Assembly (NCBI RefSeq): GCF_029227855.1
Contig: NZ_CP074356.1
Source of the DNA: Escherichia coli
GTDB taxonomy: Bacteria; Pseudomonadota; Gammaproteobacteria; Enterobacterales; Enterobacteriaceae
Direction: 5' to 3' (one strand)
Length of the DNA stretch: 64,000 bases
Part shown: one piece after another, positions 3,235 through 31,323 of the stretch
How positions within the stretch are numbered: position 1 is the stretch's first letter
Layout: each line of letters starts with the position of its first letter
Program-made: the position numbers and the translations under genes
Notes under the pieces: model-generated
What the model saw: only the letters and a program-made list of their open reading frames with translations
Database searches by the model: none
Told to the model about the DNA's origin: nothing

Positions 3235-3243
3235 GGTTTGATG

Positions 3244-4563: not shown

Positions 4564-4597
4564 TGCATCTCACCTTTTCACTTCATATCCGGCAAAA

Positions 4598-4700
4598 CTA
4601 AGAAATTTTCCAGGTTTTGCCTGGACGCTATCTCAGGCCTGATTTGCTGCTGATTTTTACAATGCATGCCTCACGCAGGTATTCATTTCAGGAGTAACCC
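4598..4700 (+). promoter_or_regulatory. uhpT promoter region with inverted repeat TTCCAGG-N5-CCTGGAC (UhpA-responsive region)
   Basis: Inverted repeat seen ~80-100 bp upstream of the uhpT ATG; the uhpT promoter is known to be UhpA- and CAP-dependent. Confidence 0.45.
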
Positions 4701-6092: not shown

Positions 6093-6110
6093 ACGTAACT
6101 GGTGACTTTT

Positions 6111-6136
6111 GCCCGGCATGACGCCGGGCTTTTTTA
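6111..6136 (+). terminator. Rho-independent terminator after uhpT
   Basis: GCCCGGC-atgac-GCCGGGC hairpin followed by a T run. Confidence 0.6.
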
Positions 6137-7903: not shown

Positions 7904-8077
7904 ATTTTTCTCATTTTGATTTTATCAATTTGATTATTATTTATCATAAAGAAACGTCGCGAGATTATTAAAGAATATCCATTAATGTGCAATTGAAATG
8001 TGATAATTATCACTGAACCGTTGTTGTCATTTGTTTTACAAAAGCAAGGGATTAAATCTCCTCCAATGGACAAAAAA
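7904..8077. promoter_or_regulatory. AT-rich divergent ade/adeP promoter region
   Basis: Very AT-rich 170-bp spacer between divergent genes; ade is known to be a cryptic, H-NS-silenced gene. Confidence 0.4.
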
Positions 8078-9412: not shown

Positions 9413-9464
9413 TAACTGGCGAGGGTTTCCAGATATCATGAGTTCTGATTACGCAGGAGAACTC

Positions 9465-9917
9465 ATGATCTGGATAATGCTCGCCACGCTGGCGGTAGTG
9501 TTTGTGGTTGGTTTTCGGGTGCTGACATCCGGGGCCAGAAAAGCGATTCGCCGTCTCAGCGATCGGCTGAATATCGATGTCGTACCCGTGGAGTCGATGG
9601 TCGATCAAATGGGAAAGTCAGCCGGTGACGAATTTTTACGTTATTTGCATCGCCCGGATGAGTCGCACCTGCAAAACGCCGCGCAGGTGTTGCTCATCTG
9701 GCAAATTGTCATTGTCGATGGTAGCGAACAGAACCTGCTGCAATGGCATCGGATTTTACAAAAAGCCCGTCTTGCCGCGCCGATTACCGATGCTCAGGTC
9801 AGGCTGGCGCTGGGTTTTCTGCGCGAAACCGAACCTGAAATGCAGGATATTAATGCTTTTCAGATGCGCTATAACGCGTTCTTTCAGCCTGCCGAGGGCG
9901 TTCACTGGCTGCATTAA
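9465..9917 (+). CDS. yicN: Uncharacterized protein YicN
   Basis: 150 aa from ATG 9465, which has a strong AGGAGA Shine-Dalgarno; alternative upstream start at 9438. Confidence 0.78.
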   Translation: MIWIMLATLAVVFVVGFRVLTSGARKAIRRLSDRLNIDVVPVESMVDQMGKSAGDEFLRYLHRPDESHLQNAAQVLLIWQIVIVDGSEQNLLQWHRILQKARLAAPITDAQVRLALGFLRETEPEMQDINAFQMRYNAFFQPAEGVHWLH

Positions 9918-9919
9918 AA

Positions 9920-9995
9920 CCGCTTCGTCTTATCAGCCTACAGACCGCGCCTGACCTGTCGGGTGGATAAGACGTTCACGCCGCATCCGGTAATC
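9920..9995. repeat. REP-like extragenic palindromic element
   Basis: Imperfect palindrome cgtcttatcagcctacag...ggtggataagacg...gccgcatccgg typical of E. coli REP units. Confidence 0.5.
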
Positions 9996-10127
9996 TTTGC
10001 CCTGTTCCGTTTCGATCTTAACTCCAGCTCAAGCAACACCGTAAAAGTTGCAAAAACGTTAAATGCGTCACACATTTCAATGTTAAAGTGGTCGGCTTTT
10101 CCCCTGAAACATGCCACGGGTAACACC

Positions 10128-11318
10128 ATGAGTGAATTTATTGCCGAAAACCGCGGCGCGGATGCCATCACCCGACCGAACTGGTCAGCCGTTTTCTCGG
10201 TGGCGTTTTGCGTCGCCTGTCTGATTATCGTTGAGTTTTTGCCCGTCAGTTTGTTGACGCCTATGGCCCAGGATTTAGGCATTTCGGAAGGGGTTGCCGG
10301 GCAATCGGTGACCGTGACCGCCTTTGTGGCAATGTTTGCCAGTTTGTTTATTACCCAGACAATTCAGGCCACTGACCGCCGCTACGTTGTTATTTTGTTT
10401 GCCGTTTTGCTGACGCTCTCCTGTTTGCTGGTTTCCTTTGCCAACTCATTCAGTTTGCTTTTAATCGGTCGTGCCTGTCTGGGGCTGGCGCTGGGCGGGT
10501 TCTGGGCGATGTCGGCGTCGCTGACCATGCGTCTGGTACCGCCGCGTACGGTGCCGAAGGCGCTGTCGGTGATCTTCGGCGCGGTTTCTATTGCGCTGGT
10601 GATTGCCGCGCCGTTGGGCAGTTTTTTAGGCGAGCTTATCGGTTGGCGCAATGTCTTTAATGCGGCGGCGGTGATGGGCGTGTTGTGTATTTTCTGGATT
10701 ATCAAATCATTGCCTTCACTGCCAGGCGAACCCTCGCATCAGAAACAAAATACTTTCCGCTTATTACAACGTCCGGGTGTGATGGCAGGGATGATCGCCA
10801 TCTTCATGTCTTTCGCCGGGCAGTTTGCTTTCTTCACGTATATTCGCCCGGTGTATATGAACCTGGCGGGATTCGGCGTGGATGGCTTAACGCTGGTGCT
10901 GTTGAGTTTTGGTATCGCCAGCTTTATTGGTACGTCGCTTTCGTCGTTCATTCTTAAACGTTCGGTAAAACTGGCCTTAGCAGGCGCGCCGTTAATACTG
11001 GCTGTGAGTGCGTTGGTACTGACGTTGTGGGGAAGCGATAAAATCGTTGCTACCGGCGTGGCGATTATCTGGGGGCTAACTTTTGCATTGGTTCCCGTCG
11101 GCTGGTCAACGTGGATCACCCGCTCGCTGGCCGATCAGGCAGAAAAAGCCGGGTCTATTCAGGTGGCGGTTATTCAGCTTGCTAATACCTGTGGCGCGGC
11201 AATCGGCGGTTATGCGCTGGATAATATTGGTCTGACTTCGCCGTTGATGTTGTCCGGCACATTGATGTTGCTGACTGCATTGTTGGTTACTGCAAAGGTG
11301 AAAATGAAGAAATCCTGA
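10128..11318 (+). CDS. nepI: Purine ribonucleoside efflux pump (MFS)
   Basis: 396 aa from MSEFIAEN; 12-TM MFS protein; ORF track start 9963 is over-extended. Confidence 0.88.
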
Positions 11319-11358
11319 TATCAGGTAAAGAAGCGTTGGTCAGTAGTTGTTGCTGTTC

Positions 11359-11652
11359 TTACATATCCGGGCATTCTACCTTACCCAACGCTTCCCAATA
11401 ATTGCTCTGATTATTACGTTCCATCGCCACGATGGCTTCGCGTATATGTTGTTTATTGTTTTCATCTGACAACATTAACTTTTCCCACGCTTCATCTGAT
11501 AATGACGCCTGTGGCGTGCAAATTTTACGTAAATCTTGTAATACCGTGGTTTTCTCTTTTGCGGACTGCAGTGAGCTAAAAGGCGACTCGGCGTATACGA
11601 TGCCTGGCATAGCGAAAAAAGTGAAAATAAGCAGTAGTGTCGTTGGTTTCAT
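11359..11652 (-). CDS. yicS: Uncharacterized secreted protein YicS
   Basis: 97-aa ORF with N-terminal signal peptide. Confidence 0.78.
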   Translation of the reverse strand: MKPTTLLLIFTFFAMPGIVYAESPFSSLQSAKEKTTVLQDLRKICTPQASLSDEAWEKLMLSDENNKQHIREAIVAMERNNQSNYWEALGKVECPDM

Positions 11653-11873
11653 GGATTCAACCTTTTACAAATGTGTATCGAATGAAGCATAAGTGTAGTT
11701 TGCTTTCATCGCTCTCATCATGCTGTACGAAACGCGCTTGCGTGGTCAGTAAGAAGTGCCAGACTTTATATTCCACTTTTATTCCTTTTTATTCTTATCG
11801 ATAGCGTTTCGTTTTTTAAACCGCAGCGACCTTACCGCTATAGTCAGGTAATCATTAATAAAAGGATAAAAAA

Positions 11874-12692
11874 GTGAAACTGACAACACATCATCTACGG
11901 GCGGGGGCCGCATTATTGCTGGCAGGAATTCTGCTGGCAGGTTGCGACCAGAGTGGCAGCGATACAAAACACATTAAAGTTGGCGTTATAAATGGCGCAG
12001 AACAAGATGTCGCGGAAGTCGCTAAAAAGGTAGCAAAAGAGAAATATGGTCTCGATGTTGAACTGGTAGGATTTAGCGGTTCGTTGCTACCGAACGATGC
12101 GACAAATCATGGCGAACTTGATGCGAATGTCTTTCAGCATCGACCCTTTCTCGAACAAGATAATCAGGCGCATGGTTATAAACTGGTAGCGGTGGGAAAT
12201 ACGTTTGTCTTCCCCATGGCGGGTTATTCCAAAAAAATCAAAAGTGTGGCGCAAATAAAAGAAGGCGCGACAGTGGCGATCCCCAACGACCCGACCAACC
12301 TTGGTCGTGCGCTTTTACTGTTGCAAAAAGAGAAGCTAATTACTCTGAAAGAGGGAAAAGGGTTATTACCTACCGCGCTGGATATAACCGATAATCCTCG
12401 TCATTTGCAGATTATGGAACTCGAGGGGGCGCAGCTCCCGCGCGTACTGGATGATCCCAAAGTTGATGTAGCGATTATCAGCACCACTTACATTCAGCAG
12501 ACAGGGCTTTCTCCGGTGCACGACAGCGTATTTATTGAAGATAAGAATTCGCCGTATGTGAATATTTTGGTGGCACGGGAAGATAATAAGAATGCAGAAA
12601 ACGTGAAGGAATTTCTGCAATCTTATCAATCACCCGAAGTCGCTAAAGCGGCAGAAACCATTTTTAACGGTGGCGCGGTGCCTGGCTGGTAA
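11874..12692 (+). CDS. nlpA: Lipoprotein 28 (MetQ-like substrate-binding lipoprotein)
   Basis: 272-aa ORF with lipobox LLAGC and NlpA/MetQ-family body; GTG start. Confidence 0.9.
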   Translation: MKLTTHHLRAGAALLLAGILLAGCDQSGSDTKHIKVGVINGAEQDVAEVAKKVAKEKYGLDVELVGFSGSLLPNDATNHGELDANVFQHRPFLEQDNQAHGYKLVAVGNTFVFPMAGYSKKIKSVAQIKEGATVAIPNDPTNLGRALLLLQKEKLITLKEGKGLLPTALDITDNPRHLQIMELEGAQLPRVLDDPKVDVAIISTTYIQQTGLSPVHDSVFIEDKNSPYVNILVAREDNKNAENVKEFLQSYQSPEVAKAAETIFNGGAVPGW

Positions 12693-12695
12693 TTC

Positions 12696-13619
12696 TCACT
12701 CATGCCGCGCCGGACGATTTATTTTTCTGGCGCGGCGACGGGAATCCATTGAAATCAAAATCACCGATGACAGAATCAGCAGCGTTCCCAGCCAGTCCGG
12801 TAATGTGAACGTGATCCCCAGCAACAGCAAAGAGAGTAGCGCGCTACTTAATGGTTCTGCACAGCTCAAAATGCTGGCTTTTGGACCGCCAATTAATTGT
12901 GCTCCTTTCAGGTACAGACTAAATGTCAGGGACGTACCAATGACCACCAAATAAAAAAACGCCAGAATCAAACTGCCGTTAACGACAAAGTTTGTTCCTT
13001 GTCTGGCATAAAAAGGCAACAGAATCAGACCGCCAATCAGCATACTCCAGCCGACGACTGGTAACGTGCCATAGCGGGCAATTAGCGTTGAGGGATAGGT
13101 GGTATAGAATGCAGCAGCAAATGCCGAGGCAATGCCCCAGAACAACGCGGCAGGAGAGATCGATAATGACGTCGGATTACCGTGTGTCACCAATAAAAAA
13201 GTCCCGACCAGCGATGTCAAAATAGCGCAGAAAACCAGAATGCCCGGGCGCGATTTACGCACCAGTGAGAACCAGGCGACGATAATCGTCGGTGAGAGGA
13301 ATTGCAGCACCGTTGCCGTGGCTGCGTTCGATTTTTCGATGGTTAGCAAAAAAGTGAGCTGTACAGTTAGCGCGCCAACCACGGAAAAAATCAGCAGGCT
13401 AATGGCATCTTTATGATTGTTAATAATAGAAAAGATTTTATCGCCATGAACAAATGACAGCGTCAGTAGAATCAAACCGGCGAATATCAAACGCGTCATA
13501 GTCAAAAACTGCGACGACATCTGGCTTTGCTCCATGATGTATTGCGCGCAGACCCCTGAACTTCCCCACAACACGGCGGCAATCAGAACGTTCAGCATCC
13601 CCTTTCTGGTGGAACCCAT
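12696..13619 (-). CDS. yicL: EamA/DMT-family inner membrane transporter YicL
   Basis: 307-aa 10-TM protein with duplicated EamA-like halves. Confidence 0.87.
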
Positions 13620-13729
13620 TTTTCCCTCTGCATACTGTTTTGTCGTTTATGTATGCAGGCATGATAGCAAAAATGGCGAGGATGGCTCTGTTTGCGCCAC
13701 GCCGATTTTTCTTAGCCCAGACTGGTGAG

Positions 13730-14914
13730 CTAAATATCTTTAATAAACAGCAGGCAAATCATCGCAATACCCAACATCCCTATCGCCAGACAGAACAACG
13801 CATGGTAGCTCCAGATTTCAACCATAATTCCGTCAACAGAGCCGGCGATAATCCAGCCGACGCGTGAAGTATTTGCATATAACGTTGTCGCAGAGCCTAT
13901 TTTTTCAGGCATCAAGTCCTGAAAATAAAGCATGCCGATACCACAGAGAATACCAAGGAAGATGGCATTAAGAATTTGCAATTCCAGCTCAACCGCCGGA
14001 GTCGTCGCCATGAGTACGCTGGCGTAAAAACACATTCCACTCACGATAGCAATGAGCATTAATAGTCGCTTGCCAATACGTTTCATGTAATAGCCTGCGA
14101 TTAACATCATCGGAATTTCCAGACCGGCAGCGATACCAATCATTTCTCCAGCCAGTTTATCGGTTAGATGCAGTTCATCAATAATAAATAGCGGCATATT
14201 TATCATGTAGAGATTATTCGCCGCCCACATCATTGAACAGACCACAAAAAGTAGCCGCGTATCCCGCTTCCTGTGGGTGGAGGGTAAAATTTCTACGGGT
14301 TGGGTAACGACAGGAATATTTCTTTGTATTGATGGCAAAAACAACCAGACTATCAGTCCGCAAACAACAAATGCGATGGCTGCGGTGAGATACATCACTT
14401 TAAAACTAAATCCCATTGCCAGTTCATAAGCGAGCGGTGGCCCGATAACCCAGGCAAGCGAGATCTGAGCACGTAAAAATGTACTGAACATGACCGTCTC
14501 ACGGCCTGTTCTGTCGGCGTGTTCACGGGCGAGGGCGAACATTTGCGGGTTTGCGGTGGAAGCAAAACTACTCAGAAGTACGCCCGTTGAGAGGAGAATG
14601 AAGTAGTTGCGATTCCACGCAAAAAGCGTGCAGGCCAGCACTCCAAATAAGCAACATAGCAGAATCAGTAATTTACGGTCGCCTTGTTTATCGGAGTGCC
14701 TTGCCAGAAATTGACTGACCAGAATTCCCATAATAGCGCTACCGGTGAAGAAAAAACCTACCATTATAGGACGGGCTTTCAGTTCATCTGCGAGGAATAT
14801 ACTTAGGGTAGGAGTCTGAAGAGCGCCCGCAATACCCGTCAGAAAGGCGACAAGTAAAAATGCCGCGGCAGTGAGATCAAGTATTTTTGATGGAGTGGTA
14901 GCCGTTTTTTGCAT
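13730..14914 (-). CDS. setC: Sugar efflux transporter SetC (MFS)
   Basis: 394-aa MFS ORF recognised as SetC/YicK. Confidence 0.88.
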   Translation of the reverse strand: MQKTATTPSKILDLTAAAFLLVAFLTGIAGALQTPTLSIFLADELKARPIMVGFFFTGSAIMGILVSQFLARHSDKQGDRKLLILLCCLFGVLACTLFAWNRNYFILLSTGVLLSSFASTANPQMFALAREHADRTGRETVMFSTFLRAQISLAWVIGPPLAYELAMGFSFKVMYLTAAIAFVVCGLIVWLFLPSIQRNIPVVTQPVEILPSTHRKRDTRLLFVVCSMMWAANNLYMINMPLFIIDELHLTDKLAGEMIGIAAGLEIPMMLIAGYYMKRIGKRLLMLIAIVSGMCFYASVLMATTPAVELELQILNAIFLGILCGIGMLYFQDLMPEKIGSATTLYANTSRVGWIIAGSVDGIMVEIWSYHALFCLAIGMLGIAMICLLFIKDI

Positions 14915-15550
14915 TCTTCTGAATCACCGGGCGAAAAAATATAACTGAGTTACAAATAAGTACCAGTCGAATGAGTATTGTATTAAGAATTTTTGAGTAT
15001 CGCTGATACAACCAGAAAGCAATGCTAGCGCAATATTATAGGGCCAGCAATTGAGATTATTAGTAAAAGCATGTTAAGAATTAATTACCGAATTTATATA
15101 TTAATTATAGTAAGGCAATGAGCTATTTTTGATAGTAAAAATAAAACAAGTTGATTTGATATATTAAATGAACAAATTAATCTTGATGGCAGTCTGATTA
15201 TTGGTGAAGTTTATAGTCAGTTTTTTTCGCCAGCGGTTAAAGAAATAGAATAGTCGTATAAAAAAGGGTGTTCTGGGGCGAGTAAAACAACATCTTCACC
15301 TTAATGGCGATACAGTTGGCTGAGAGTCAGCAGGGGGGCAAATCACCTGCAAATAAACACGGCGCATACTGGCGTGAATATCGCGGATGCGTTCGAGGAC
15401 AGAAGAACCGACAGGCGGATTCTTCAGCCGCTCATCGTCCATCACAAAACCTTAGACCAGGTATTCCTGAAGCCGATTGAATATTGAGCAGTAGAAAATA
15501 TCTGGATTGACAGTATTACAAGGGGTTGGAGAACGTCAGGAGAGGCATTT

Positions 15551-15571
15551 TGGCGGAAGATCACAGGAGTC
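15551..15571 (+). repeat. attL: 21-bp direct repeat of the selC 3' end
   Basis: Exact copy of 27174..27194. Confidence 0.8.
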
Positions 15572-15715
15572 AAAATTGACATATAACAATTTGATTTAAA
15601 TCGTTTATATTTTTCTATTCTAATTCATTTATACACATCCTTATACATATAATATCTATCGATTAATTTTTACACGCATCTTCACGCACGTTAACTCAGG
15701 AAAAAAATTTTTTTT

Positions 15716-16012
15716 TCGGAAGAACTGTTCACACTGTTCACCTTTCTGTTTTCTCCTTTTATTTCAGTTGGATAGGTGGTGAATAATGGGTGAAGGGTGA
15801 ACATTCGATTCTTCACCTCCGGCATTCTGCCGGTGTGACTCATACCGGTGATTAATCCCCCGTGCTGAAATCACACCGGAAGAAAAAAGTTTTTTTTGAT
15901 TTGATTGTTCACACTGTTCACCTTTCATTTTTCTCTTTTAATTTCAGTGTGATAACGGGTGAATATACGGTGAAGGGTGAACAGTGGATTGTTCACCTTC
16001 GGGGAATTCAGG
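15716..16012. repeat. crr-like region: two ~110-bp direct repeats with TGTTCACC/GGTGAACA octamer iterons
   Basis: Block gttcacactgttcacctttc...ggtgaagggtgaaca occurs twice (about 15722 and 15903), immediately downstream of the alpha gene; P4 crr has two 120-bp repeats with alpha-binding type I iterons. Confidence 0.7.
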
Positions 16013-16047
16013 GATAAAAAAAGACCGGCAGATGCCGGTCACGTGGG

Positions 16048-18381
16048 TCAGGTTGTTGCAGGGTCGTCACATTTTGGCAGCCAGTCGCCGTAGCTTTCCT
16101 CTTTCAGCGTCAGGTTGGTCTGTATCCCCTGTTTGGTATGGCGCTTCTCGTAATTCAGTCCGTATTCCTTCAGCATCACCGGCAGCCCCAGCCCGAACAT
16201 TTTCAGACTGAGTACATTCCGGTAGCCGTTTGCCTCCATGTAGGCCAGATAGGCGTGATAGAGGTATTTACGGTAATTGCGCGGGATGATACTGGCGTTC
16301 CCCATATACATGCCGCTGGTCTGCGGCAGGGTTTCCAGATAGCCGATAAAATCAAACGTCGGGTCGGCATCCCGTTTGATGTTCAGCGCCTCGTCTGAGT
16401 TCTGCTGGGACTGAAGCAGTGACCGGGCGAGCATCGGGTCGCTGAACTTCTGCATCAGGTGACGCACGATGACCGCCAGCTCGCGGGTGATTTTGTCCTT
16501 AAGTTGCGGGTCGCGCTCCTGCGGGGCTATCTGTTCCGGGAAGTGAATAATCACCCGCCGGCGTGACACGCCGCCGCTGCGGTCGGTGAAGCGCATCGGG
16601 TTATTGTTCACGGCCAGAATCACCGCCGGGATATGCGTGGAGTACGCATCCCGGTATTTCGGGTCAACGGACACTGCATCGCCGCCGGTGATGGCCTTGA
16701 GTCCGGCTCCGTCGCCGCTCCATTTTTCCTGGTCCGGCAGGCGTATCAGTGAGAAGCCAGTTAACGCGGCACGTTCACGCGGGGATTCCAGCGTCTCAAT
16801 GGTGGCCGACGTGGCGTTATCCTCCCCGGCCAGCAGGGTGGCTATTTCGGCCATGATACTTTTGCCGCTGCCGCCGGGACCGGTCACCTCCAGAAAGAGC
16901 TGCCAGTCGTAGCGGTTTGCCAGCACCATAAACAGTGCGGCCAGAATCACGTCGCGTTTTTCCGCACGGCCACCGGCGGCACGGTCAAGCCAGCGCCAGA
17001 ACGCGGGGGCGTGGGTCTCCAGCGTTTCCCCTTCCACCGGCGGGGTGAAATCCACATCGCACAGGGTGCGCATCCAGTGTGACGGACTGTGCGGGTGGAA
17101 CGTGCCGTTCTGCGTGTCGAGCACGCCGTTACGAAAGCCAATCAGGCGGCGGGAGGGGGCTTCCTGCTGCGGAATAATCAGCTTCAGGGTGTCCACCACG
17201 GAGGCCACCTTCCCGGAGGAGAACGGCGCGCGCAGACGCTGAAACAGCCCGGCCACATCCCGGGCAAAGTCCTGTGGCGGCAGCACCTTCCAGACACCAT
17301 TTTCATAGCGGGACAGAAGCTGGCCGTTGGCATCGACCGCGAGCGCCTCGCCGTAATGCTCATAGATACGCATGGCCTTTTCGCTGGTACTCATGGCGGA
17401 AAACTCCGCTTCGCTCATGGTGTCGAACGGGCTTTCAGCCGGTGGCCGGATGGCATCATAAATGGCCTTACGGGTGGCTTCCCCGCCGTACTGCGTGAAG
17501 GCATCATTCCAGTCACCGAAGACCGGCGGCAGGGCAACAACACCTTCACACGCATCTGCGGCTGCGGCGGCTTTTTTCTGGCCGTCACCACTGAGGTCAC
17601 GGTCAGCGGCAAGGACAATCTGACAGGCGGGGTGCTTCTGCCGGGCAAGGCTGGCCAGAGAAAGGAGGTTCACGGAAGAAAGCGCCACCATCACCGTTTC
17701 ACCGGTCAGGTGATGTACGGTAAGTGCGGTCGCGTATCCCTCCGCTATCCACAGACGTTTTCCGGCCTGATTCTGTCCTTCAAGGGTGTGACAGGTGCCC
17801 CTGACCTGTCCGCCTTTCAGGGTGCGCTTACGGCCGTCAGCACTGATTAACTGAAGGTTAACCAGTTCGCCGCTGTCGTCATACAGTGGCACCACAAGGT
17901 CACCGGCGCGCCAGCTCACGCCACCGGCTCTGTGTGTGCCGGTCAGCATCCGGCATTCCCGGCCGGGAAAGCCCTTGCGGGTCAGGTAGGCGTTACCGGT
18001 TCCGGTACGGGTTTTCGCCATCAGGGTTTGTGCCAGTGCGGCGGCGTTCTTCCGGGCAGCGTCTGTTTCAGCACCGGCGGCGGCCGTCACTGCCGGGTCA
18101 GCCGGGGGCAGGCTGCCGGTCACGGCAGCCACCTTTGCGGCCGCGTCGGACGGGGAAACACCAAACACCTTTTCAACCAGTTTCAGGCCGTCACCGGCAC
18201 CACACTGATTGCAGTACCAGGTGCCGCGCCCCTCCCTGTCATCAAAACGGAAGCGGTCACTCCCGCCACAGACCGGACAGGGCTGATGACGGTTCTTCAG
18301 CACCTGAATCCCCAGCGCCGGGAGAATACGCGGCCAGTGGCCGAGCGCATGGCTGACGGTGGCGGTTACGTTCATTTTCAT
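16048..18381 (-). CDS. P4 alpha-like DNA primase/helicase
   Basis: 777-aa ORF; N-terminal zinc-finger primase motif CPVCGGSDRFRFDD...YCNQCG; Walker A GPGGSGKS in the C-terminal helicase part; same length as P4 alpha. Confidence 0.9.
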   Translation of the reverse strand: MKMNVTATVSHALGHWPRILPALGIQVLKNRHQPCPVCGGSDRFRFDDREGRGTWYCNQCGAGDGLKLVEKVFGVSPSDAAAKVAAVTGSLPPADPAVTAAAGAETDAARKNAAALAQTLMAKTRTGTGNAYLTRKGFPGRECRMLTGTHRAGGVSWRAGDLVVPLYDDSGELVNLQLISADGRKRTLKGGQVRGTCHTLEGQNQAGKRLWIAEGYATALTVHHLTGETVMVALSSVNLLSLASLARQKHPACQIVLAADRDLSGDGQKKAAAAADACEGVVALPPVFGDWNDAFTQYGGEATRKAIYDAIRPPAESPFDTMSEAEFSAMSTSEKAMRIYEHYGEALAVDANGQLLSRYENGVWKVLPPQDFARDVAGLFQRLRAPFSSGKVASVVDTLKLIIPQQEAPSRRLIGFRNGVLDTQNGTFHPHSPSHWMRTLCDVDFTPPVEGETLETHAPAFWRWLDRAAGGRAEKRDVILAALFMVLANRYDWQLFLEVTGPGGSGKSIMAEIATLLAGEDNATSATIETLESPRERAALTGFSLIRLPDQEKWSGDGAGLKAITGGDAVSVDPKYRDAYSTHIPAVILAVNNNPMRFTDRSGGVSRRRVIIHFPEQIAPQERDPQLKDKITRELAVIVRHLMQKFSDPMLARSLLQSQQNSDEALNIKRDADPTFDFIGYLETLPQTSGMYMGNASIIPRNYRKYLYHAYLAYMEANGYRNVLSLKMFGLGLPVMLKEYGLNYEKRHTKQGIQTNLTLKEESYGDWLPKCDDPATT

Positions 18382-18395
18382 GGTGTTGTTCTCCT

Positions 18396-18716
18396 TCAGT
18401 GCAGTACCGGCGCTTTTATGTGACGGGCACAGAGTTCATCCATCACAACCAGCCCGAGAAAGGACAGCGACGGCGCGGCCTTCAGGGGGCCGGATTCCAT
18501 TAAATCTTCCAGCAGGGCACAGGCTATCTGACGCCCTTTTTCCTCACCGTGCTGGCGCAGATAAAAGCCTTCCAGCTCAGCGGCGATGGCCGCCTCCAGT
18601 GATTCAAGGGTGAGATGCGGGTAGCGGTGCTGACGTTCGCACACGGTCAGCCAGGCACAGGCGACAGCGCGACGGTAAAGGGCAGCGCGTAAGACGGGCG
18701 GTAAGGGTGTTTTCAT
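18396..18716 (-). CDS. Hypothetical protein (P4-like left operon, 106 aa)
   Basis: ORF immediately upstream of and co-directional with alpha; no recognised motif. Confidence 0.5.
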
Positions 18717-18851
18717 TTGCTTTCCTCCCTGTGACAGATGACTGCATTCCGTGCCGGTTGCATTAACTGATAAGGCATATCTGCGTCTCCTGAAGACGTG
18801 CGTATCCCTGCGCGAATACGCACATTTAATTTTTCGGGTGTCGTTTTTTAA

Positions 18852-19307
18852 TTACAGATAATTGCGGTAACTGTTATCCGGGGTGATTTCCGGGTCAGGC
18901 TCCGTGCGGGGAATTTCCCGCCATTCCCGCGCCACCTGTGCCGCCCGGCTGACCGGAACAGGGTCCTGCGGGTAAATATCCAGATATTTCTCCCGCCATT
19001 TCTGTAATTCCGGGTCTCCGGCCATTTCTTTCAGTACCGCATGCCGGTTTACGGGGCTGCGTCTGAACAGGTCAGGACGGTCACAGGTAAATTCCCGCAG
19101 AAAACGCCCCAGCGGGATGTCTGTGGTGCGCCCGTCAGCGAGGATACGCACAAGGATACTGAATTTACGGCGGTACGGGTTCCAGACAATGTCCGGGCAG
19201 CGGTACGGCATTTCCCACGGAATACCGTCTTCCAGAATGCCGACCACGGCCACATCGGGAAAACCGGCAGAACGGTAAATCTCACCGGGCTGGGGAAAAT
19301 CAAACAT
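18852..19307 (-). CDS. Hypothetical protein (151 aa; same length as P4 orf151)
   Basis: Co-directional ORF in the left operon; protein-like composition. Confidence 0.55.
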   Translation of the reverse strand: MFDFPQPGEIYRSAGFPDVAVVGILEDGIPWEMPYRCPDIVWNPYRRKFSILVRILADGRTTDIPLGRFLREFTCDRPDLFRRSPVNRHAVLKEMAGDPELQKWREKYLDIYPQDPVPVSRAAQVAREWREIPRTEPDPEITPDNSYRNYL

Positions 19308-19872
19308 GCGTCCTGTCTCCCCGGTCTTTCTGCTGGGCGAGAAAATCGCGGCACAGGCCTTTGGCTTTCAGCTCATTCAGCACAAAATCAATATCTTCAT
19401 TCAGGTAACTGAAAATATGCGGAATGTAGAGCTGATGCAGGCCGGAGAGTTCACGGTGAATCAAATCACCCCCAACAAACTGGGATACGGCGCTGGCGCG
19501 GTTGAGCTTATGGTAAGCCTCAATGCTGAGGTGTTCACGGGCGTCATGACGTGCTGAGACGGTCTGAGGGGCTTTTTTATTACGCACGGGACACCTCCAC
19601 CACCGGCAGACGGGCAGCAAGGGAGAGCACATAGTCACGGACAAGGGAACGGCGGGCACTGCGTTCATCACCGGCCACGGTGCGAAGCATACAGATACGG
19701 GGATGACGGTCTGCGCGACGGACAGCCGCAAACACAAAGACAAATTCAGGGTGTGAGGGGGTAAGGGTTGTAGCCATGATGGCAGCCTCCTGTGAATAGC
19801 AAATAACGCTATCGCCGGAGTTCTCACGCTCGATGGCGATAGCCCAGACGGGGGTGAGAATACCGGCTTCAC
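19300..19872 (-). CDS. Hypothetical protein, start uncertain
   Basis: C-terminal ~85 aa look protein-like; the N-terminal part is P/S/L/R-rich and overlaps another frame; putative GTG start. Confidence 0.3.
19580..19777 (-). CDS. Hypothetical small protein (65 aa; C-terminal part of the 214-aa ORF)
   Basis: Internal ATG ([12 protein letters not shown]...) gives a compact ORF ending at the stop at 19580; the upstream part of the 214-aa ORF overlaps vis and is probably not coding. Confidence 0.25.
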
Positions 19873-20175
19873 AGGATACCGGCCAGCCCGGAGGCTGCCC
19901 CGCCTGAGCTACCATTGACTCTGCGGCATAATGAGCGGACGCGGGCAGGATGCACGGAATGCCATCTGCACGACTGACCACACACCACACCATAATCTGG
20001 CGCTCTGTGGCATTGATTGCGACACAAAAAAAGACGCGTGGCGCGTCATATGTCGCCTGTGAATTGCTCGGGTTCTCACGCCCGGCTGCCGATTTTGCGG
20101 CAGCGGAAAAACTATATCCGCAAATGCCGGAAAAAGGCAAGCCAGAAAAAGGGAGTTTTTGCAGAGCGGGCATCA

Positions 20176-20442
20176 TCATGCGTCGTACCCCCGTTTGCGT
20201 CCGGCAATGCGTCCGGCCATCCATGCGGTGACTTCAGAGTGCAGCCAGGCCACATTTTTACCGCCAAGACTCACCTGCGGCGGAAATTCCCCCTTACGGA
20301 TGAGTTCATAGATGGTCGAGCGTGACAGGCCGCACAGGTGCATCACTTCCGGCAGACGTAAAAAACGCTCCTGCGTGATGTCCGGCAGCGGCATCAGTGG
20401 CGTCACTGGGGCGGGAGACGGGGAAGAAAAAACAGATTGCAT
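20176..20442 (-). CDS. AlpA/Vis-family phage transcriptional regulator (88 aa)
   Basis: AlpA-type HTH signature FLRLPEV...[15 protein letters not shown]; same length as P4 Vis (orf88). Confidence 0.78.
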
Positions 20443-20545
20443 CGGGCTACCTCGTTAATGTCCATACAGCACCGGATAAGTCCGTCCGGCTTCGGGTAGC
20501 GCTTTATTTTGTGAATATTTTCGGCAGACGCAACAGGGGGGGATT

Positions 20546-20563
20546 TGTTCCGGCAGTCTTACA
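20546..20563. promoter_or_regulatory. TGT-N12-ACA site (Ogr/Delta-type activator box), candidate leftward late promoter
   Basis: TGTtccggcagtcttACA ~110 bp upstream of the vis start; P2/P4 late promoters carry TGT-N12-ACA centred near -55. Confidence 0.4.
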
Positions 20564-20719
20564 ATGGCTGTGTATTTTTTGTACATCAGCGCCAGATAGC
20601 TTTAAAACGCTCTGGAAGGAGCTGGAAAAAATTATAGTGAAATACAAATTGTTTTTTCTTATTTATTTCAGTGAATTAATAAAAATAAAAAGTAATGAAC
20701 AGCACAAAAAGCCCATTAA

Positions 20720-20830
20720 CGGGTGAACAGTGGTGAACAGACGGTGAACAGTCATTACTGCGATTGTTCACCCTTTAACTTACTGTATTACTTATCTTTT
20801 TTCTTATGGTGAACAGAGGTGAACAGTAAA
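20720..20830. repeat. ori-like cluster of GGTGAACAG iterons
   Basis: Five direct copies and one inverted copy of GGTGAACA(G) within ~110 bp, ~4.8 kb from the crr-like repeats, as in P4. Confidence 0.65.
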
Positions 20831-20904
20831 ATATAAAAAAACAAACAGTAAGCCGGTTTTTCCTGCGACCTTTTCCTGGCTTGCCGGTCTGAGGATGAGT
20901 CTCC

Positions 20905-20922
20905 TGTGTCAGGGCTGGCACA
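20905..20922. promoter_or_regulatory. TGT-N12-ACA site, candidate Psid late promoter activator box
   Basis: TGTgtcagggctggcACA centred ~80 bp upstream of the sid ATG. Confidence 0.45.
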
Positions 20923-20994
20923 TCTGCAATGCGTCGTGTTGTTGTCCGGTGTACGTCACAATTTTCTTAACCTGAAGTGACGAGGAGCCGGAAA

Positions 20995-21729
20995 ATGTCT
21001 GACAACACCATCCCTGAATATCTGCAACCCGCGCTGGCACAACTGGAAAAGGCCAGAGCCGCCCATCTTGAGAACGCCCGCCTGATGGATGAGACCGTCA
21101 CGGCCATTGAACGGGCAGAGCAGGAAAAAAATGCGCTGGCGCAGGCCGACGGAAACGACGCTGACGACTGGCGCACGGCCTTTCGTGCAGCCGGTGGTGT
21201 CCTGAGCGACGAGCTGAAACAGCGCCACATTGAGCGCGTGGCACGCCGGGAGCTGGTACAGGAATATGACAATCTGGCCGTGGTGCTGAATTTTGAACGT
21301 GAACGCCTGAAAGGGGCGTGTGACAGCACGGCCACCGCCTACCGGAAGGCACATCATCACCTGCTGAGTCTGTATGCAGAGCATGAGCTGGAACACGCCC
21401 TGAATGAAACCTGTGAGGCGCTTGTCCGGGCAATGCATCTGAGCATTCTGGTACAGGAAAATCCGCTCGCCAACACCACCGGCCATCAGGGCTACGTCGC
21501 ACCGGAAAAGGCTGTCATGCAGCAGGTGAAATCATCGCTGGAACAGAAAATAAAACAGATGCAAATCAGCCTCACCGGCGAGCCGGTTCTCCGGCTGACC
21601 GGACTGTCAGCGGCAACACTCCCGCACATGAATTATGAGGTGGCAGGCACACCGGCACAGCGCAAGGTGTGGCAGGACAAAATAGACCAGCAGGAAGCAG
21701 AGCTTAAGGCCAGAGGGCTGCTGTCATGA
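20995..21729 (+). CDS. sid: P4 Sid-like capsid size determination (external scaffold) protein
   Basis: 244 aa from MSDNTIPEY; coiled-coil-rich; first gene of the sid-delta-psu arrangement. Confidence 0.78.
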   Translation: MSDNTIPEYLQPALAQLEKARAAHLENARLMDETVTAIERAEQEKNALAQADGNDADDWRTAFRAAGGVLSDELKQRHIERVARRELVQEYDNLAVVLNFERERLKGACDSTATAYRKAHHHLLSLYAEHELEHALNETCEALVRAMHLSILVQENPLANTTGHQGYVAPEKAVMQQVKSSLEQKIKQMQISLTGEPVLRLTGLSAATLPHMNYEVAGTPAQRKVWQDKIDQQEAELKARGLLS

Positions 21730-22226
21730 TTTACTGCCCGTCGTGTGGACATGTTGCTCACACCCGTCGCGCACATTTCATGGACGATGGCACCAAGATA
21801 ATGATTGCACAGTGCCGGAATATTTATTGCTCTGCGACATTTGAAGCGAGTGAAAGCTTTTTCTCTGACTGTAAAGATTCAGGAATGGAATACATTTCAG
21901 GCAAACAGAGATACCGCGATTCACTGACGTCGGCCTCCGGCAGTATGAAACGCCCGAAAAGAATGCTTGTTACCGGATATTGTTGTCGGAGATGTAAAGG
22001 CCTTGCACTGTCAAGAACATCGCGGCGTCTGTCTCAGGAAGTCACCGAGCGTTTTTATGTGTGCACGGATTCGGGCTGTGGTCTGGTGTTTAAAACGCTT
22101 CAGACCATCAACCGCTTCATTGTCCGCCCGGTCACACCGGACGAACTGGCAGAACGCCTGCATGAAAAACAGGAACTGCCGCCAGTACGGTTAAAAACAC
22201 AATCATATTCGCTGCGTCTGGAATGA
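21726..22226 (+). CDS. delta: P4 Delta-like late-gene activator (tandem Ogr-type zinc fingers)
   Basis: 166 aa; two Ogr-like Cys motifs (CPSCGH...CRNIYC and CCRRCKG...CTDSGC); start overlaps sid stop. Confidence 0.88.
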   Translation: MIYCPSCGHVAHTRRAHFMDDGTKIMIAQCRNIYCSATFEASESFFSDCKDSGMEYISGKQRYRDSLTSASGSMKRPKRMLVTGYCCRRCKGLALSRTSRRLSQEVTERFYVCTDSGCGLVFKTLQTINRFIVRPVTPDELAERLHEKQELPPVRLKTQSYSLRLE

Positions 22227-22299
22227 GGGCTGCCGGTTAACCCCGGCCGTCGCCGCACACCGTATTTTTATTCTTCAGCATGATGAGAAAGAGATAACG

Positions 22300-22872
22300 A
22301 TGGAAAGCACAGCCTTACAGCAGGCCTTTGACACCTGTCAGAATAACAAAGCAGCATGGCTGCAACGCAAAAATGAGCTGGCAGCGGCCGAACAGGAATA
22401 CCTGCGGCTTCTGTCAGGAGAAGGCAGAAACGTCAGTCGCCTGGACGAATTACGCAATATTATCGAAGTCAGAAAATGGCAGGTGAATCAGGCCGCCGGT
22501 CGTTATATTCGTTCGCATGAAGCCGTTCAGCACATCAGCATCCGCGACCGGCTGAATGATTTTATGCAGCAGCACGGCACAGTACTGGCGGCCGCACTGG
22601 CACCGGAGTTGATGGGCTACAGTGAACTGACGGACATTGCCCGAAACTGTGCCATACAGCGTGCCACAGATGCCCTGCGTGAAGCCCTTCTGTCCTGGCT
22701 TGCGAAGGGGGAAAAAATTAATTATTCCGCACAGGATAGCGACATTTTAACGACCATCGGATTCAGGCCTGACGCGGCTTCGGTGGATGACAGCCGTGAA
22801 AAATTCACCCCTGCGCAGAACATGATTTTTTCGCGTAAAAGTGCGCAACTGGCATCACATCAGTCTGTGTAA
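22300..22872 (+). CDS. psu: P4 Psu-like polarity suppression / capsid decoration protein
   Basis: 190-aa ORF following delta; same length and position as P4 Psu. Confidence 0.78.
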   Translation: MESTALQQAFDTCQNNKAAWLQRKNELAAAEQEYLRLLSGEGRNVSRLDELRNIIEVRKWQVNQAAGRYIRSHEAVQHISIRDRLNDFMQQHGTVLAAALAPELMGYSELTDIARNCAIQRATDALREALLSWLAKGEKINYSAQDSDILTTIGFRPDAASVDDSREKFTPAQNMIFSRKSAQLASHQSV

Positions 22873-23036
22873 AACTCCCCGAAAATCCGTCCGATTTTAC
22901 TGAAAAAAGCCATGCATCGATAAGGTGCATGGCTTTGCATGCGTTTCCCTGCCTCATTTTCTGCAAACCGCGCCATTCCCGGCGCGGTCTGAGCGTGTCT
23001 GTGCAACTGCATTAAAACCGCCCTGCAAAGCGGGCG

Positions 23037-23055
23037 GGCGAGGCGGGGAAAGCAC
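23037..23055 (+). other. P2/P4-type cos site
   Basis: Exact 19-mer GGCGAGGCGGGGAAAGCAC, the P2/P4 cohesive-end sequence as I recall it, between psu and the cargo operon. Confidence 0.78.
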
Positions 23056-23076
23056 TGCGCGCACGAGAGTAAAACA

Positions 23077-23739
23077 TTACTCAATTGAAAAATGTAACAT
23101 TCCTCTCTCTCTCGGTGTAATGGTGTTGGGATGAACTAACCGTTCCATTTCAAAACCAAAATCATGATAAGCAGTATTATAAAAAGAGCTTAAAATAAAT
23201 TTCACAAACGTTACCGGACATAATGGTGACGACAATGGTATCCGGCAATTTTTAAACTGACCTAGGGTTAGGTGTGCTGCTGGATGAATAACATCATTAG
23301 CGTCATCAGGGGCATAATCCACTCGTATCGGAACGGGTAAAATTGATTTTTGGACAATGTCAGCATAAAAGTTGCTTTCGTCTAAATATAACTCAGGGTC
23401 ATTCTGGAATGATTCGTAATTAGGCGCGGGGAAATAACATAGTCTTTCTTTTACAAGTTTCATTCGACGATCAAACTGAAATAAAAGATGGAGTAACCCA
23501 CCATCTAATAATTTGATATTATATTGCCTTTTTTCGTCCAAGAAGTTATAGATATCAACATACTCAATATTTCTTAATGCAATTGAAGTATCAGCGAATC
23601 CGCTATAGCTGACATAATAATATTCTTTATCCCGTGTTATTACAGGATAGTTTTGTGCGTCACTGATACCCACTGATATCAGATGAGATGTGATTTTTCT
23701 AATTGCTGCGCAAATGCTACTTGAGTTCATCTCATTCAC
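23077..23739 (-). CDS. Hypothetical protein, second gene of the satellite cargo operon (candidate defense partner/effector)
   Basis: 220-aa ORF; start overlaps or lies 1 nt after the stop of the upstream helicase-like gene; AT-rich; no recognisable catalytic motif or TM segment. Confidence 0.7.
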   Translation of the reverse strand: MNEMNSSSICAAIRKITSHLISVGISDAQNYPVITRDKEYYYVSYSGFADTSIALRNIEYVDIYNFLDEKRQYNIKLLDGGLLHLLFQFDRRMKLVKERLCYFPAPNYESFQNDPELYLDESNFYADIVQKSILPVPIRVDYAPDDANDVIHPAAHLTLGQFKNCRIPLSSPLCPVTFVKFILSSFYNTAYHDFGFEMERLVHPNTITPRERGMLHFSIE

Positions 23740-25828
23740 CCTTCAGTTGCTTAATTAAAGCAAGGCGTAATTCTTCTGGTATATCTTCAACTCTAACTTG
23801 TCCATCCAATAGAACCATGAGATTATGGGCGTTCAATTTAGCTTGGTGTACTCTTTTTCTCTCTTGAGAAGTCATATCCCTGTTCACCAGTCGCATTTTT
23901 TTACGCTCTGCTTCTGTTGGGTATGTAAATTCCAGTTTAAATCCTCTTTGTTTCACCTCATTGTATTCGTTAATCAGGCCATCAAAGGAAGAACCCACAC
24001 CACATACACGAAGCCATGCTTTAGTTCTTGTCATTGCAGTAAAAAGGATATTTCTACGCTTTGCCAGTTCATAATCCACGTTGCAATAATGAGCATCCAT
24101 GATGTATACCATAGCTGCTTCGTTTCCCTTTGCTCTGAATATGGATGTAAATGTTACACTATTGTCTGAGAAAAACTCATCAGGAGAGCTTGTAATTCCA
24201 GCTATAGATGTATTAATTCCGTTTTGGAATAAAAGGTCACGCAGATAACCTACTTCATTTCTCATACGTATTGTATCTGGGTGAATTACAACAATGTCGC
24301 TAGGTAATATCTCTTCCTCATGAATATTTTTAAATATTTCCTGCGCAATCCAATTAGATTGAGAATGCTTGTCTTCAAATTTAACAAACTGGATCATCTC
24401 ATCAATTGAGTTATGTGCACTCAATAGGGATGGGCTAGATTTCGTTGTCCTTGATAATATAACCTCCTTTCCCTCAACTAATTCACCATCTATTTTTTCA
24501 TAACCAATCTCTGTCCATAATCCTTCAAAATCAAACATCTGAATTATTGGTTTATGATAAATACCAAACCCTAAAGCATGAGCCGTGGTTAAGATTGGGC
24601 CTGGATTTCGATAACAAATGTCTAAAGTTATATCTTGTTCTTCACTGGTGAAACTAACAATTGGTTTTCCATGCTCGTCTACTCCCCAAATTTGTTCAGG
24701 AGAAGGCATGGATGAATCCCCAAGATTTTGTAATTCATCATAAGCGTAAACTAATCGTTTCTTTTCCCCTAGCAAAGAATAACATATGCGGAGAAACTCA
24801 ATTGAAAAATCTTGAGCCTCATCAATAAGGATGAAATCATATAATTTCTTATCTTCTTTTTTATTATCGAGGAAGTTCTTACAGGCAGCCTGAAAAGGTG
24901 TTTCATTAAATTCTGCAAGACGACGTGCGCCGTTATAATCGTAATAAGGTATATTATGTGCCACACATGCGTTGTAATATAAACCTTCTGTTTTAGAGCC
25001 GCCCCAGGCATGAATAATGTCTACGTTATCCCAATCAATTCCATTATCATCTGCGAATGCTGAGACTAAATGTTTTAGTTGCTCTTTGAGAGAGCGACTA
25101 TTGAAAGTAACTGCTATTTTCCAGTGAGGATTTTGTGAGTGTATATGTGCAATTTTTCGAGCGAGAACAATAGTCTTACCTGAGCCAGCAAGCCCACGAA
25201 TCCTTTGGACATTATCAATATTGACCAAGACGGCAGTCGTTTGACTAGAATCAAGAGTGGCAAGTGAATTCTCCAATTTTTTTAGTACGCTACCCTTTGA
25301 GTCAATCTGTCTGACATAGCTTCTTTTTCTCTTGGGCTTCAATTTTGAAAGTGATTGAACATGGGATAGTAAAGTTTCAAGAAGGGAACCATCATCCCAG
25401 GTAATGTCATTGAGAATAGATAATATTTCATCAACATTGGAACTAATGCTTAAACCACTGTCACAATCAAAATCATCAATATTTATACAGTTTGGTGCGA
25501 AAACAATACTGTTCACAGGTACGTTTAATATTCTGTTTTTAGTCAGTGCTTTTACTTCAGAAAGTTTTGCGACGAATTTCATGTGCATTTCGTCAATGAT
25601 ATCAATATCATCTTGGGTTAACTCTCTTTCCTCATTGAAATGGAAAATGACAACACCATGCTTTGATGAGCAAATTAGACCATCAAGAGTAACATTGTTT
25701 TCGCTTAGAAAAATAACAGGAAAACCGCGATAATAATATCCAGTTATATCATTTATCTTTCTTATTGAATTTTCTAGAATATCAGAAACAGTATGATTCT
25801 GAGGTTTCATTCCCAATATTTCAATCAT
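23732..25828 (-). CDS. SF1 (UvrD-like) helicase-family ATPase with ~200-aa N-terminal domain of unknown function; candidate defense protein
   Basis: 698 aa; Walker A GLAGSGKT (res ~212-219), motif II LIDEAQDF (res ~334-341), C-terminal FRAKGNEAAMVYI and FTAMTRTKAWL resembling UvrD-like helicase C-terminal motifs; GGAG Shine-Dalgarno 8 nt before the ATG; start overlaps the int stop. Confidence 0.85.
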   Translation of the reverse strand: MIEILGMKPQNHTVSDILENSIRKINDITGYYYRGFPVIFLSENNVTLDGLICSSKHGVVIFHFNEERELTQDDIDIIDEMHMKFVAKLSEVKALTKNRILNVPVNSIVFAPNCINIDDFDCDSGLSISSNVDEILSILNDITWDDGSLLETLLSHVQSLSKLKPKRKRSYVRQIDSKGSVLKKLENSLATLDSSQTTAVLVNIDNVQRIRGLAGSGKTIVLARKIAHIHSQNPHWKIAVTFNSRSLKEQLKHLVSAFADDNGIDWDNVDIIHAWGGSKTEGLYYNACVAHNIPYYDYNGARRLAEFNETPFQAACKNFLDNKKEDKKLYDFILIDEAQDFSIEFLRICYSLLGEKKRLVYAYDELQNLGDSSMPSPEQIWGVDEHGKPIVSFTSEEQDITLDICYRNPGPILTTAHALGFGIYHKPIIQMFDFEGLWTEIGYEKIDGELVEGKEVILSRTTKSSPSLLSAHNSIDEMIQFVKFEDKHSQSNWIAQEIFKNIHEEEILPSDIVVIHPDTIRMRNEVGYLRDLLFQNGINTSIAGITSSPDEFFSDNSVTFTSIFRAKGNEAAMVYIMDAHYCNVDYELAKRRNILFTAMTRTKAWLRVCGVGSSFDGLINEYNEVKQRGFKLEFTYPTEAERKKMRLVNRDMTSQERKRVHQAKLNAHNLMVLLDGQVRVEDIPEELRLALIKQLKGE

Positions 25829-27011
25829 TTTGAACTCCGGTAGATAAATTCATCAAAAAATCCGAGTATTTTTGCATCATATATTTTCTTTTATCAAGAT
25901 ACAAAGCATGATTATATGTGCCTCGGATAGTATTCTTATCAACATGTGCGAGCTGAATCTCAATCCATGCGCTCTCAAATCCCATTTCATGAAGAATTGT
26001 CGATAGTGTATGCCTAAAACCATGACCAGTAGTTCTTCCCTTATAACCTAATGATTCAATAACTTGGTTTACACTTTCTTTGCTTATCGGTTTTCTACGA
26101 TCATTTCTGCCAATAAAAACATAGGGATAGTCCGATGTTATCGGTTGTAGTTGTTTAAACAGTTCAATTACCTGAGATGATAAAGGTACTATATGTGGCC
26201 GACGCATTTTCATCCGTTCAGCAGGTATTTCCCAGATACCTTTTATCAAATCAATTTCACTCCAAGTTGCAAAACGCATTTCCTGCGTCCTGACTCCTGT
26301 CATCATTAGGATCTTGGTTGCGTTTTTGGTAATAATACTTCCAGTATATGACTCTAGATCTCTAACAAAATGAGGTAGCTCTTCCGCGGATAAAAACGGA
26401 TGATGCCTTTGCTTGGGAATAGCCAAAGCGATTGCTAAATCAGGCGCCGGATTGTATTCAGCACGGCCAGTGATGATCGCGTAGCGAAACACTTCTCCAC
26501 ATCGTTGGCGAACTTTTCTGGTTTTCTCCAACGCTCCACGTTTTTCGATGCGCTTAAGTACTTCAAGCAGTTCTAATGGCTTAATTTCAGATATTGGGCG
26601 TTTACCAATGAAAGGAAAAACGTCCTGTTCGAATGTTTTAATAATTTCCTCCCGATAAGCGATAGTCCAGCGATCTGCTTTTGCTGCATGCCATTCTCTG
26701 CTAACTGACTCAAAAGAATTTTCAGTTGATAATTTTTGAGCAAGTTTCTGAGCCTTCCGTTCTTCTACTGGGTCTATGCCGTTTGCTACCTGCTTACGTG
26801 CAGTATCACGTTTCTCTCGTGCTTCTGCGAGGCTAACAAGTTCGTAACTACCAAATGACATTAGCCGTGCTTTACCGGCGAAACGAAAGCGGAAGCGCCA
26901 GCCCTTTGAACCGTCTGGCTTGATGAGTAGTGACAAACCGTGCCCATCATTCATTGTATATGGTTTGTCTTGTGGTTTTGCGCGTTTGATTTGTATATCG
27001 GTTAGAGCCAT
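25821..27011 (-). CDS. int: P4-type tyrosine integrase
   Basis: 396 aa; catalytic HGFRHT...(R)...Y motifs in the C-terminus; N-terminal P4-integrase-like region; lies next to selC. Confidence 0.93.
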   Translation of the reverse strand: MALTDIQIKRAKPQDKPYTMNDGHGLSLLIKPDGSKGWRFRFRFAGKARLMSFGSYELVSLAEAREKRDTARKQVANGIDPVEERKAQKLAQKLSTENSFESVSREWHAAKADRWTIAYREEIIKTFEQDVFPFIGKRPISEIKPLELLEVLKRIEKRGALEKTRKVRQRCGEVFRYAIITGRAEYNPAPDLAIALAIPKQRHHPFLSAEELPHFVRDLESYTGSIITKNATKILMMTGVRTQEMRFATWSEIDLIKGIWEIPAERMKMRRPHIVPLSSQVIELFKQLQPITSDYPYVFIGRNDRRKPISKESVNQVIESLGYKGRTTGHGFRHTLSTILHEMGFESAWIEIQLAHVDKNTIRGTYNHALYLDKRKYMMQKYSDFLMNLSTGVQND

Positions 27012-27173
27012 GTGTATAACTGAAAACTGCGTATGAAGATTCTATACACATTACTATACATATTTTTCGCGGATTCAGGGAGATGATCTCGGACTATTAC
27101 GGACAAGATGATTATTTATGATATTGAATATAAAGGATTTTATGGAGTATCTCGGAACTGGCTGGATGAAGTT

Positions 27174-27268
27174 TGGCGGAAGATCACAGGAGTCGAACCT
27201 GCCCGGGACCGCTGGCGGCCCCAACTGGATTTGAAGTCCAGCCGCCTCACCGGAGACGACGATCTTCC
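27174..27268 (-). tRNA. selC: tRNA-Sec (selenocysteine tRNA, UCA anticodon)
   Basis: 95-nt match to the selC sequence as I recall it, on the minus strand, including long variable arm and CCA end. Confidence 0.93.
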
Positions 27269-31271: not shown

Positions 31272-31323
31272 TCTATTGATGGAATGCCGGGTACGTCTGA
31301 GTCGTACCCGGCGAGATTGATGT

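Follow-up and report, generated by a model that had tools for sequence, protein, structure and literature searches.

A P4-like satellite with a Helicase+DUF2290 cargo at the selC gene of an Escherichia coli chromosome

The sequence analysed here, a 64,000-nucleotide stretch of Escherichia coli contig NZ_CP074356.1 (the window), is chromosomal DNA comprising the uhp genes, adeD, nlpA, yicL, setC, selC, yicJ, yicI, yicH, recG and the waa genes. Inserted at the 3′ end of selC is an element that is very probably an intact P4-like satellite, with seven core components arranged in the P4 order and a mosaic structure in which a P4 backbone is joined to an integrase and defence block of low guanine-cytosine (GC) content. 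The spacing between its att sites gives a length of 11,623 bp, as compared to 11,624 bp for P4. From left to right the locus comprises the following features.

15549-15571: attL core, the left copy of a 23-bp repeat, duplicating the 3′ end of selC.
15572-15702: int-distal attP arm, without homology to P4, with tandem candidate arm-type Int sites TATACACAT at 15630 and TATACATAT at 15642.
15703-16002, plus strand: crr (cis replication region), with two 120-bp repeats and 10 type-1 iterons, all identical to P4.
16048-18381, minus strand: alpha primase-helicase, 777 amino acids, 6 amino acid changes relative to P4.
18396-18716, minus strand: cnr (ORF106), 106 amino acids, 0 changes relative to P4.
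18852-19307, minus strand: orf151, 151 amino acids, 4 amino acid changes relative to P4.
19300-19587, minus strand: epsilon (helper derepression), 95 amino acids, 1 amino acid change relative to P4.
19832-19919, minus strand: cI immunity RNA, matching the Rfam C4 antisense RNA at 74.9 bits, with a stable fold (z = -5.2).
20027-20117, minus strand: left-operon leader with the targets of the cI RNA (Rfam isrK, 69.7 bits; c4-a1b1, 49.5 bits).
20176-20442, minus strand: vis (ORF88, an AlpA-like excisionase/regulator), 88 amino acids, 2 amino acid changes relative to P4.
20443-20994: divergent late-promoter and ori region, with six type-1 iterons at 20722-20825 identical to P4.
20995-21729, plus strand: sid (capsid size determination), 244 amino acids, 3 amino acid changes relative to P4.
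21726-22226, plus strand: delta (Ogr-like late-gene activator), 166 amino acids, 4 amino acid changes relative to P4.
22300-22872, plus strand: psu (polarity suppression, capsid decoration), 190 amino acids, 4 amino acid changes relative to P4.
22995-23063, plus strand: cos region common to P2 and P4; homology to P4 extends no further than 8 bp beyond the right edge of the cohesive end.
23077-23730, minus strand: DUF2290 protein, second gene of the defence system, 217 amino acids from an ATG.
23732-25828, minus strand: superfamily 1 (SF1) UvrD-like helicase, first gene of the defence system, 698 amino acids; its first 8 nucleotides are shared with the end of int.
25821-27011, minus strand: tyrosine integrase, 396 amino acids, with Arm-DNA-bind_3, Phage_int_M and catalytic domains.
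27010-27171: int-proximal attP arm, with TATACAYAT motifs in tandem (27043, 27055) and a further, inverted one (27010-27018) over the int start codon.
27172-27194: attR core, the right copy of the 23-bp repeat, providing the 3′ end of selC.
27174-27268, minus strand: selC (tRNA-Sec), identified by ARAGORN and, at full length, by Rfam (83.8 bits); intact, the target of integration.

The segment from 15703 to 23063 aligns as a single block to P4 (NC_001609) nucleotides 4291-11624 followed by 1-27 (7,362 nucleotides, 98.1% identity). Only two indels interrupt the alignment, each of one nucleotide and both in non-coding DNA, and translation of the P4 coding sequences in place showed all of them to be full length, with 0-6 amino acid changes and no frameshift or truncation. 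An initial annotation of this DNA had read the locus as an apparently complete P4-like satellite carrying int, alpha, vis, sid, delta and psu, and had proposed alignment to the P4 reference as a check. All six genes proved to be full-length open reading frames (ORFs) in the places proposed; alpha, sid and delta are free of frameshifts and truncations, and the catalytic residues and all three domains of the integrase are intact. Every component of the Type A set of SatelliteFinder (integrase, psu, delta, sid, alpA/vis, epsilon and alpha), as defined by Moura de Sousa and Rocha (2022, PMC8628076), was found, and the reading of the locus as a complete satellite at selC thus agrees with all that can be checked in the sequence. 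The gene order (int, then the hotspot with cos, then psu, delta, sid, alpA, epsilon and alpha) is that of the family, with att sites lying beside int and alpha.

The signals for packaging and replication have been kept as well. The 19-nucleotide cohesive end GGCGAGGCGGGGAAAGCAC matches P4 exactly, as the same annotation had claimed, and occurs only once in the window (23037-23055); the surrounding 61-68 bp, common to P4 and P2-like phages, are conserved at 91-95% identity; the site is thus a cos of the P2/P4 type. A terminator-like hairpin next to it (23018-23037, minus strand), the one feature of note in a promoter and terminator scan of the cargo region, has a counterpart in P4 and was not used as evidence. 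The iteron TGTTCACC is present 14 times in the window against 1.7 occurrences expected, and 11 of the 14 are grouped at 15735-15997 and 20722-20825. Both of these clusters had been noted in the initial annotation; all 16 type-1 iterons annotated in P4 (10 in crr and 6 in ori) are found here in identical form, giving the alpha-dependent arrangement of ori and crr, with a difference in the type-2 decamers that is taken up below. At 11,623 bp, the satellite fits within the limit of about 12 kb set by the small capsid (PMC9122126).

The boundaries of the element are defined by an exact 23-bp direct repeat, TTTGGCGGAAGATCACAGGAGTC, found at 15549-15571 and 27172-27194. The repeat had initially been described as 21 bp long. 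It does bound the satellite, but its full exact length is 23 bp, the 21 bp corresponding to the part that lies inside the tRNA gene, since the right copy includes the last 21 nucleotides of selC (27174-27194). Allowing up to 3 mismatches, the 64-kb window contains no third copy, against 0 expected by chance. When the left flank of attL was joined to the right flank of attR, the attB site so rebuilt was the same as a real empty selC site, that of strain EC21GDE043, for at least 15 nucleotides past the core. This match makes the satellite boundaries exact. Integration duplicated the 3′ end of the tRNA gene and left the tRNA intact, as is the case with the tRNA-targeting integrases of the P4 family.

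Between setC and attL, the window contains a fragment of a rhuM pseudogene (15310-15470), called by the NCBI annotation pipeline (PGAP) in the 100% identical flank of E. coli CFS3292; in other strains a full rhuM gene directly adjoins selC. The presence of this fragment, and of rhuM-type islets next to selC elsewhere, could be taken to mean that the sequence from setC to selC forms one larger composite island rather than a discrete satellite. We consider this highly improbable: the window contains only two copies of the 23-bp repeat, the sequence to the left of attL continues exactly as it does at the empty selC site, and the satellite is found in combination with a full rhuM, a fragment or no rhuM at all, and also away from selC. 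The latter observation places the rhuM islet outside the satellite, as older neighbouring DNA; the fragment appears to be what is left of an earlier islet at selC, upon which the satellite subsequently integrated.

The interval comprising P4 nucleotides 28-4290 (gop, beta, cII, int and the leuX attP) has been swapped for a block made up of positions 23064-27171 and 15549-15702, which become contiguous at the att site when the element is circular. The two intervals are nearly equal in length (4,262 bp here, 4,263 bp in P4), and at 37.5% the GC content of the block is lower than that of either the P4 backbone (55.5%) or the chromosome (about 50%). Its three genes, int and those for the helicase and the DUF2290 protein, are tightly packed and all transcribed from the minus strand. 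Although only 39% identical to P4 Int, the integrase has the domains and the catalytic residues (R241, H330, R333, H356 and Y365) of the arm-binding tyrosine integrases of the P4 family. In a tblastn search of a phage collection that did not include phiR73, the best match, at 48% identity, was to Klebsiella phage vB_Kpn_Chronis, and Sf6-type integrases scored around 47%.

Sequences that this integrase may contact could be recognized in the att arms. The motif TATACAYAT occurs 6 times in the window, where 0.57 copies are expected, and five of the six copies lie within the arms: each side of the core has a tandem pair, and the fifth copy covers the int start codon in inverted orientation. The four other copies of the satellite that were examined keep this layout, and the GGGGGCAYA arm repeats of P4 are arranged in the same manner, flanking the core and covering the start codon of int. 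On these grounds, the TATACAYAT sites are candidates for the arm-type binding sites of this integrase. About 296 further complete E. coli genomes have int alleles with 77-83% nucleotide identity that are not followed by the helicase gene. Such alleles, selC-associated integrases of genomic islands as in O157:H7, O26 and O145 strains, probably flank islands of the LEE (locus of enterocyte effacement) type or the cryptic prophage 933L.

The cargo, noticed in the initial annotation without being identified, corresponds to a known system. The DUF2290 gene begins one base past the stop codon of the helicase gene, and its end lies 13 bp short of the conserved cos segment. The helicase matches PADLOC profile PDLC03002 end to end (880 bits, residues 1-696) and its neighbour profile PDLC02999, also end to end (258 bits, residues 4-219), while Pfam recognizes UvrD_C_2, UvrD-helicase and DUF2290 domains. 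Two adjacent genes with these matches are what the profile definition of Helicase+DUF2290 (Rst_HelicaseDUF2290 / PADLOC) describes. Rousset et al. (2022, PMC9122126) described this system in the psu-int hotspot of P4-like elements, beside cos, and found it to inhibit T7. At the DNA level, the cargo shows 100% identity with strain CFS3292 (NZ_CP026935.2), where it encodes proteins WP_001697485 and WP_001697486, and both of these are listed under the P4 psu-int loci in Table S1A of that study (PMC9122126). A 69-amino acid hypothetical ORF annotated by PGAP in CFS3292 and CU42ET-1, equivalent to 22925-23134 of the window, extends over cos and into the DUF2290 stop codon, and is for this reason probably a spurious call. 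Promoter-like sites in the cargo region are fewer than in shuffled sequence.

The DUF2290 family gathers 907 representatives at an E-value of 0.001 or below, among which residues Y57, R136, H153, C162, R163, F175 and Y184 are invariant. The AlphaFold2 model of the protein is confident (predicted local distance difference test, pLDDT, of 92.2). A sequence search of the PDB returned no match for either the helicase or the DUF2290 protein, and the fold of the latter may be new. No mechanism for Helicase+DUF2290 is given in the published accounts that we found. By a loose analogy with Gabija, Hachiman and other defence pairs that contain a helicase, the helicase may act as a nucleic-acid sensor or motor and the DUF2290 protein as its partner or effector.

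Further insight came from the distribution of the element. Among 5,426 complete E. coli genomes, 25 contain the cargo at 99.8% identity or more and 26 the int allele at 99% or more. The whole region, flanks included, is 99.4% identical to CFS3292, where the satellite occupies the same selC site. Four chromosomal contexts can be distinguished.

Window and CFS3292: selC, beside the rhuM fragment and setC.
30224_1#273: selC, beside a full rhuM.
CU42ET-1: selC, without rhuM.
EC21GDE043 (NZ_CP099721.1, locus 8003-19616): inside mobB, which is split in two halves.

The mobB copy of EC21GDE043, a strain whose own selC site is empty, encodes Int and helicase proteins identical to those of the window. 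Crossover at mobB occurred at a GA common with the core; otherwise, the site shares little with the 23-bp core except a nearby TCAAA. Over the five copies, the int-cargo block is 99.75-100% identical, whereas segments of the backbone range from 91.9 to 99.6%, the cI-vis and ori segments being the most variable. The near invariance of the block against the divergence of the backbone indicates that the backbone is a mosaic and the block young, and the occurrence of near-identical copies in four chromosomal contexts indicates recent integration events. These copies fit an element that is still active, excision and packaging of the window copy lying beyond what they prove. As to the immunity region (cI RNA to vis, 19588-20442), its identity is 99.3% with P4 but drops to 93.6-96.5% with the EC21GDE043, CU42ET-1 and 30224_1#273 copies, which suggests that otherwise similar elements carry different immunity types.

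The properties of the int-helicase-DUF2290-attP block raise the possibility that it forms a self-contained cassette of 4.26 kb that spreads as a unit among P4 backbones, recombining at cos and crr. We put this forward tentatively and rate it as somewhat doubtful. The low GC content, the near invariance against diverging backbones and the match in length with the P4 block it replaces are all as such a cassette would have them; the match in length implies that the genome has been kept at capsid size. Modular swapping of this sort has already been described in general in a 2026 preprint.

Four observations weigh against the interpretation of the locus as a working satellite with an active defence system. 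First, the system assayed experimentally (pFR91, from Klebsiella pneumoniae SB5961) is only 40% identical to this allele in its DUF2290 protein and 44% in its helicase (first 400 residues), which makes anti-T7 activity of the present allele an extrapolation. Second, no P2-like helper prophage was found in the 64-kb window, where the DNA outside the satellite is ordinary chromosome from uhp to waa. Third, Vis is of the P4 type whereas the int/attP block is not, so that Vis-directed excision with this Int is putative. Finally, where the P4 ori has three type-2 decamers (CCACTTAAAG and variants), the window copy has a 45-bp patch of unrelated sequence at approximately 20588-20632. Three further copies carry the same patch, the decamers being retained in P4 and in the copy of EC21GDE043, and the two forms represent a natural dimorphism.

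These features could alternatively describe a cryptic, immobile remnant which looks complete and no longer excises or is packaged, as is the case of the CP4 cryptic prophages of E. coli K-12. A Vis protein mismatched to a foreign Int and attP might be the cause, or else a non-functional ori patch or right flank of cos. The heterologous int/attP block, with an Int only 39% identical to that of P4, the replaced type-2 repeats, the loss of P4 homology 8 bp beyond the cohesive end on its right side and the absence of a visible helper in the window all lend themselves to this explanation. On the other hand, no gene is disrupted, and copies whose int and cargo are at least 99.75% identical occupy four chromosomal contexts, the secondary mobB site included. 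Furthermore, other natural P4-like elements diverge right after position 7 or 8 past cos (cloned sequences, Rousset 2022, Table S2) and the alternative ori patch is common to several copies. We therefore judge an immobile remnant to be unlikely, and prefer the interpretation of the locus as an intact P4-like satellite.

Two other differences were noted in the chromosomal surroundings. An ORF of 288 amino acids at 36033-36899, wedged between gltS and recG, is absent in EC21GDE043 and present in 1,917 of the 5,426 complete genomes. Its product is annotated there as a hypothetical protein and matched nothing in NCBIfam or PADLOC. In addition, a cluster of about 7 kb for sugar utilisation (phosphotransferase system/aldolase), found in the yicI-yicH interval of EC21GDE043, is absent here (31295-31320). 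The same cluster starts after yicI in CU42ET-1 and 30224_1#273, for which the loci analysed end before yicH.

If this intact satellite follows the life cycle of P4 as summarized in PMC8628076 and PMC9122126, Int would have recombined the attP of the circular element with the 3′ end of selC, the tRNA being restored by the copy that the element itself carries. The cI RNA would then keep the prophage silent. A P2-like helper would provide capsid, tail and terminase; epsilon would act in derepression of the helper, and delta, together with the Ogr protein of the helper, would switch on the late genes. Replication from ori and crr would be carried out by alpha, and Sid would force the assembly of small capsids that Psu would decorate. 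The helper terminase would cut at cos and package the genome of about 11.6 kb. In the lysogen, the helicase-DUF2290 pair may protect against some virulent phages, given that a homologue blocks T7.

P4-like satellites are found in about 44% of E. coli isolates (Rousset 2022, PMC9122126), or almost half of E. coli genomes (Moura de Sousa and Rocha 2022). Their integrases are often exchanged (PMC8628076), and defence systems are known to occur in the psu-int hotspot (Rousset 2022, PMC9122126). The element belongs to what is already known: the phenomenon, the cargo and the integration of P4-like elements at selC (phiR73, 1991) have all been published. The region illustrates how P4-like satellites carry ready-made defence systems between E. 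coli strains, and the present analysis supplies exact att, cos and module boundaries for one of them, with little importance beyond annotation.

Comparison with P4 (NC_001609 / X51522) shows the same backbone content from crr to cos, the same gene order and a nearly equal size. P4 differs in having a leuX attP and the genes gop, beta, cII and int where the element described here has the DUF2290 and helicase genes, a different integrase and a selC attP, with the type-2 decamers replaced. The satellite of CFS3292 differs from the window copy only by scattered substitutions in the P4 backbone, and the two are copies of the same element. The initial annotation had contrasted a small satellite at selC with the large pathogenicity islands for which the site is better known. 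There is nothing exceptional in such an arrangement, of which the classic case is retronphage phiR73 (Sun, Inouye and Inouye 1991; Inouye et al. 1991), a P4-like element at selC cited in PMC9122126 and PMC6174562. Both elements occupy selC and carry a defence-type cargo in the same hotspot. phiR73 is mobilised by P2. PADLOC and domain searches gave no match to a reverse transcriptase among the ORFs of the satellite; having no retron, it is not phiR73 itself. Thus, at the same tRNA gene and in the same hotspot, the cargo is a retron in phiR73 and a helicase together with a DUF2290 protein in the satellite described here.

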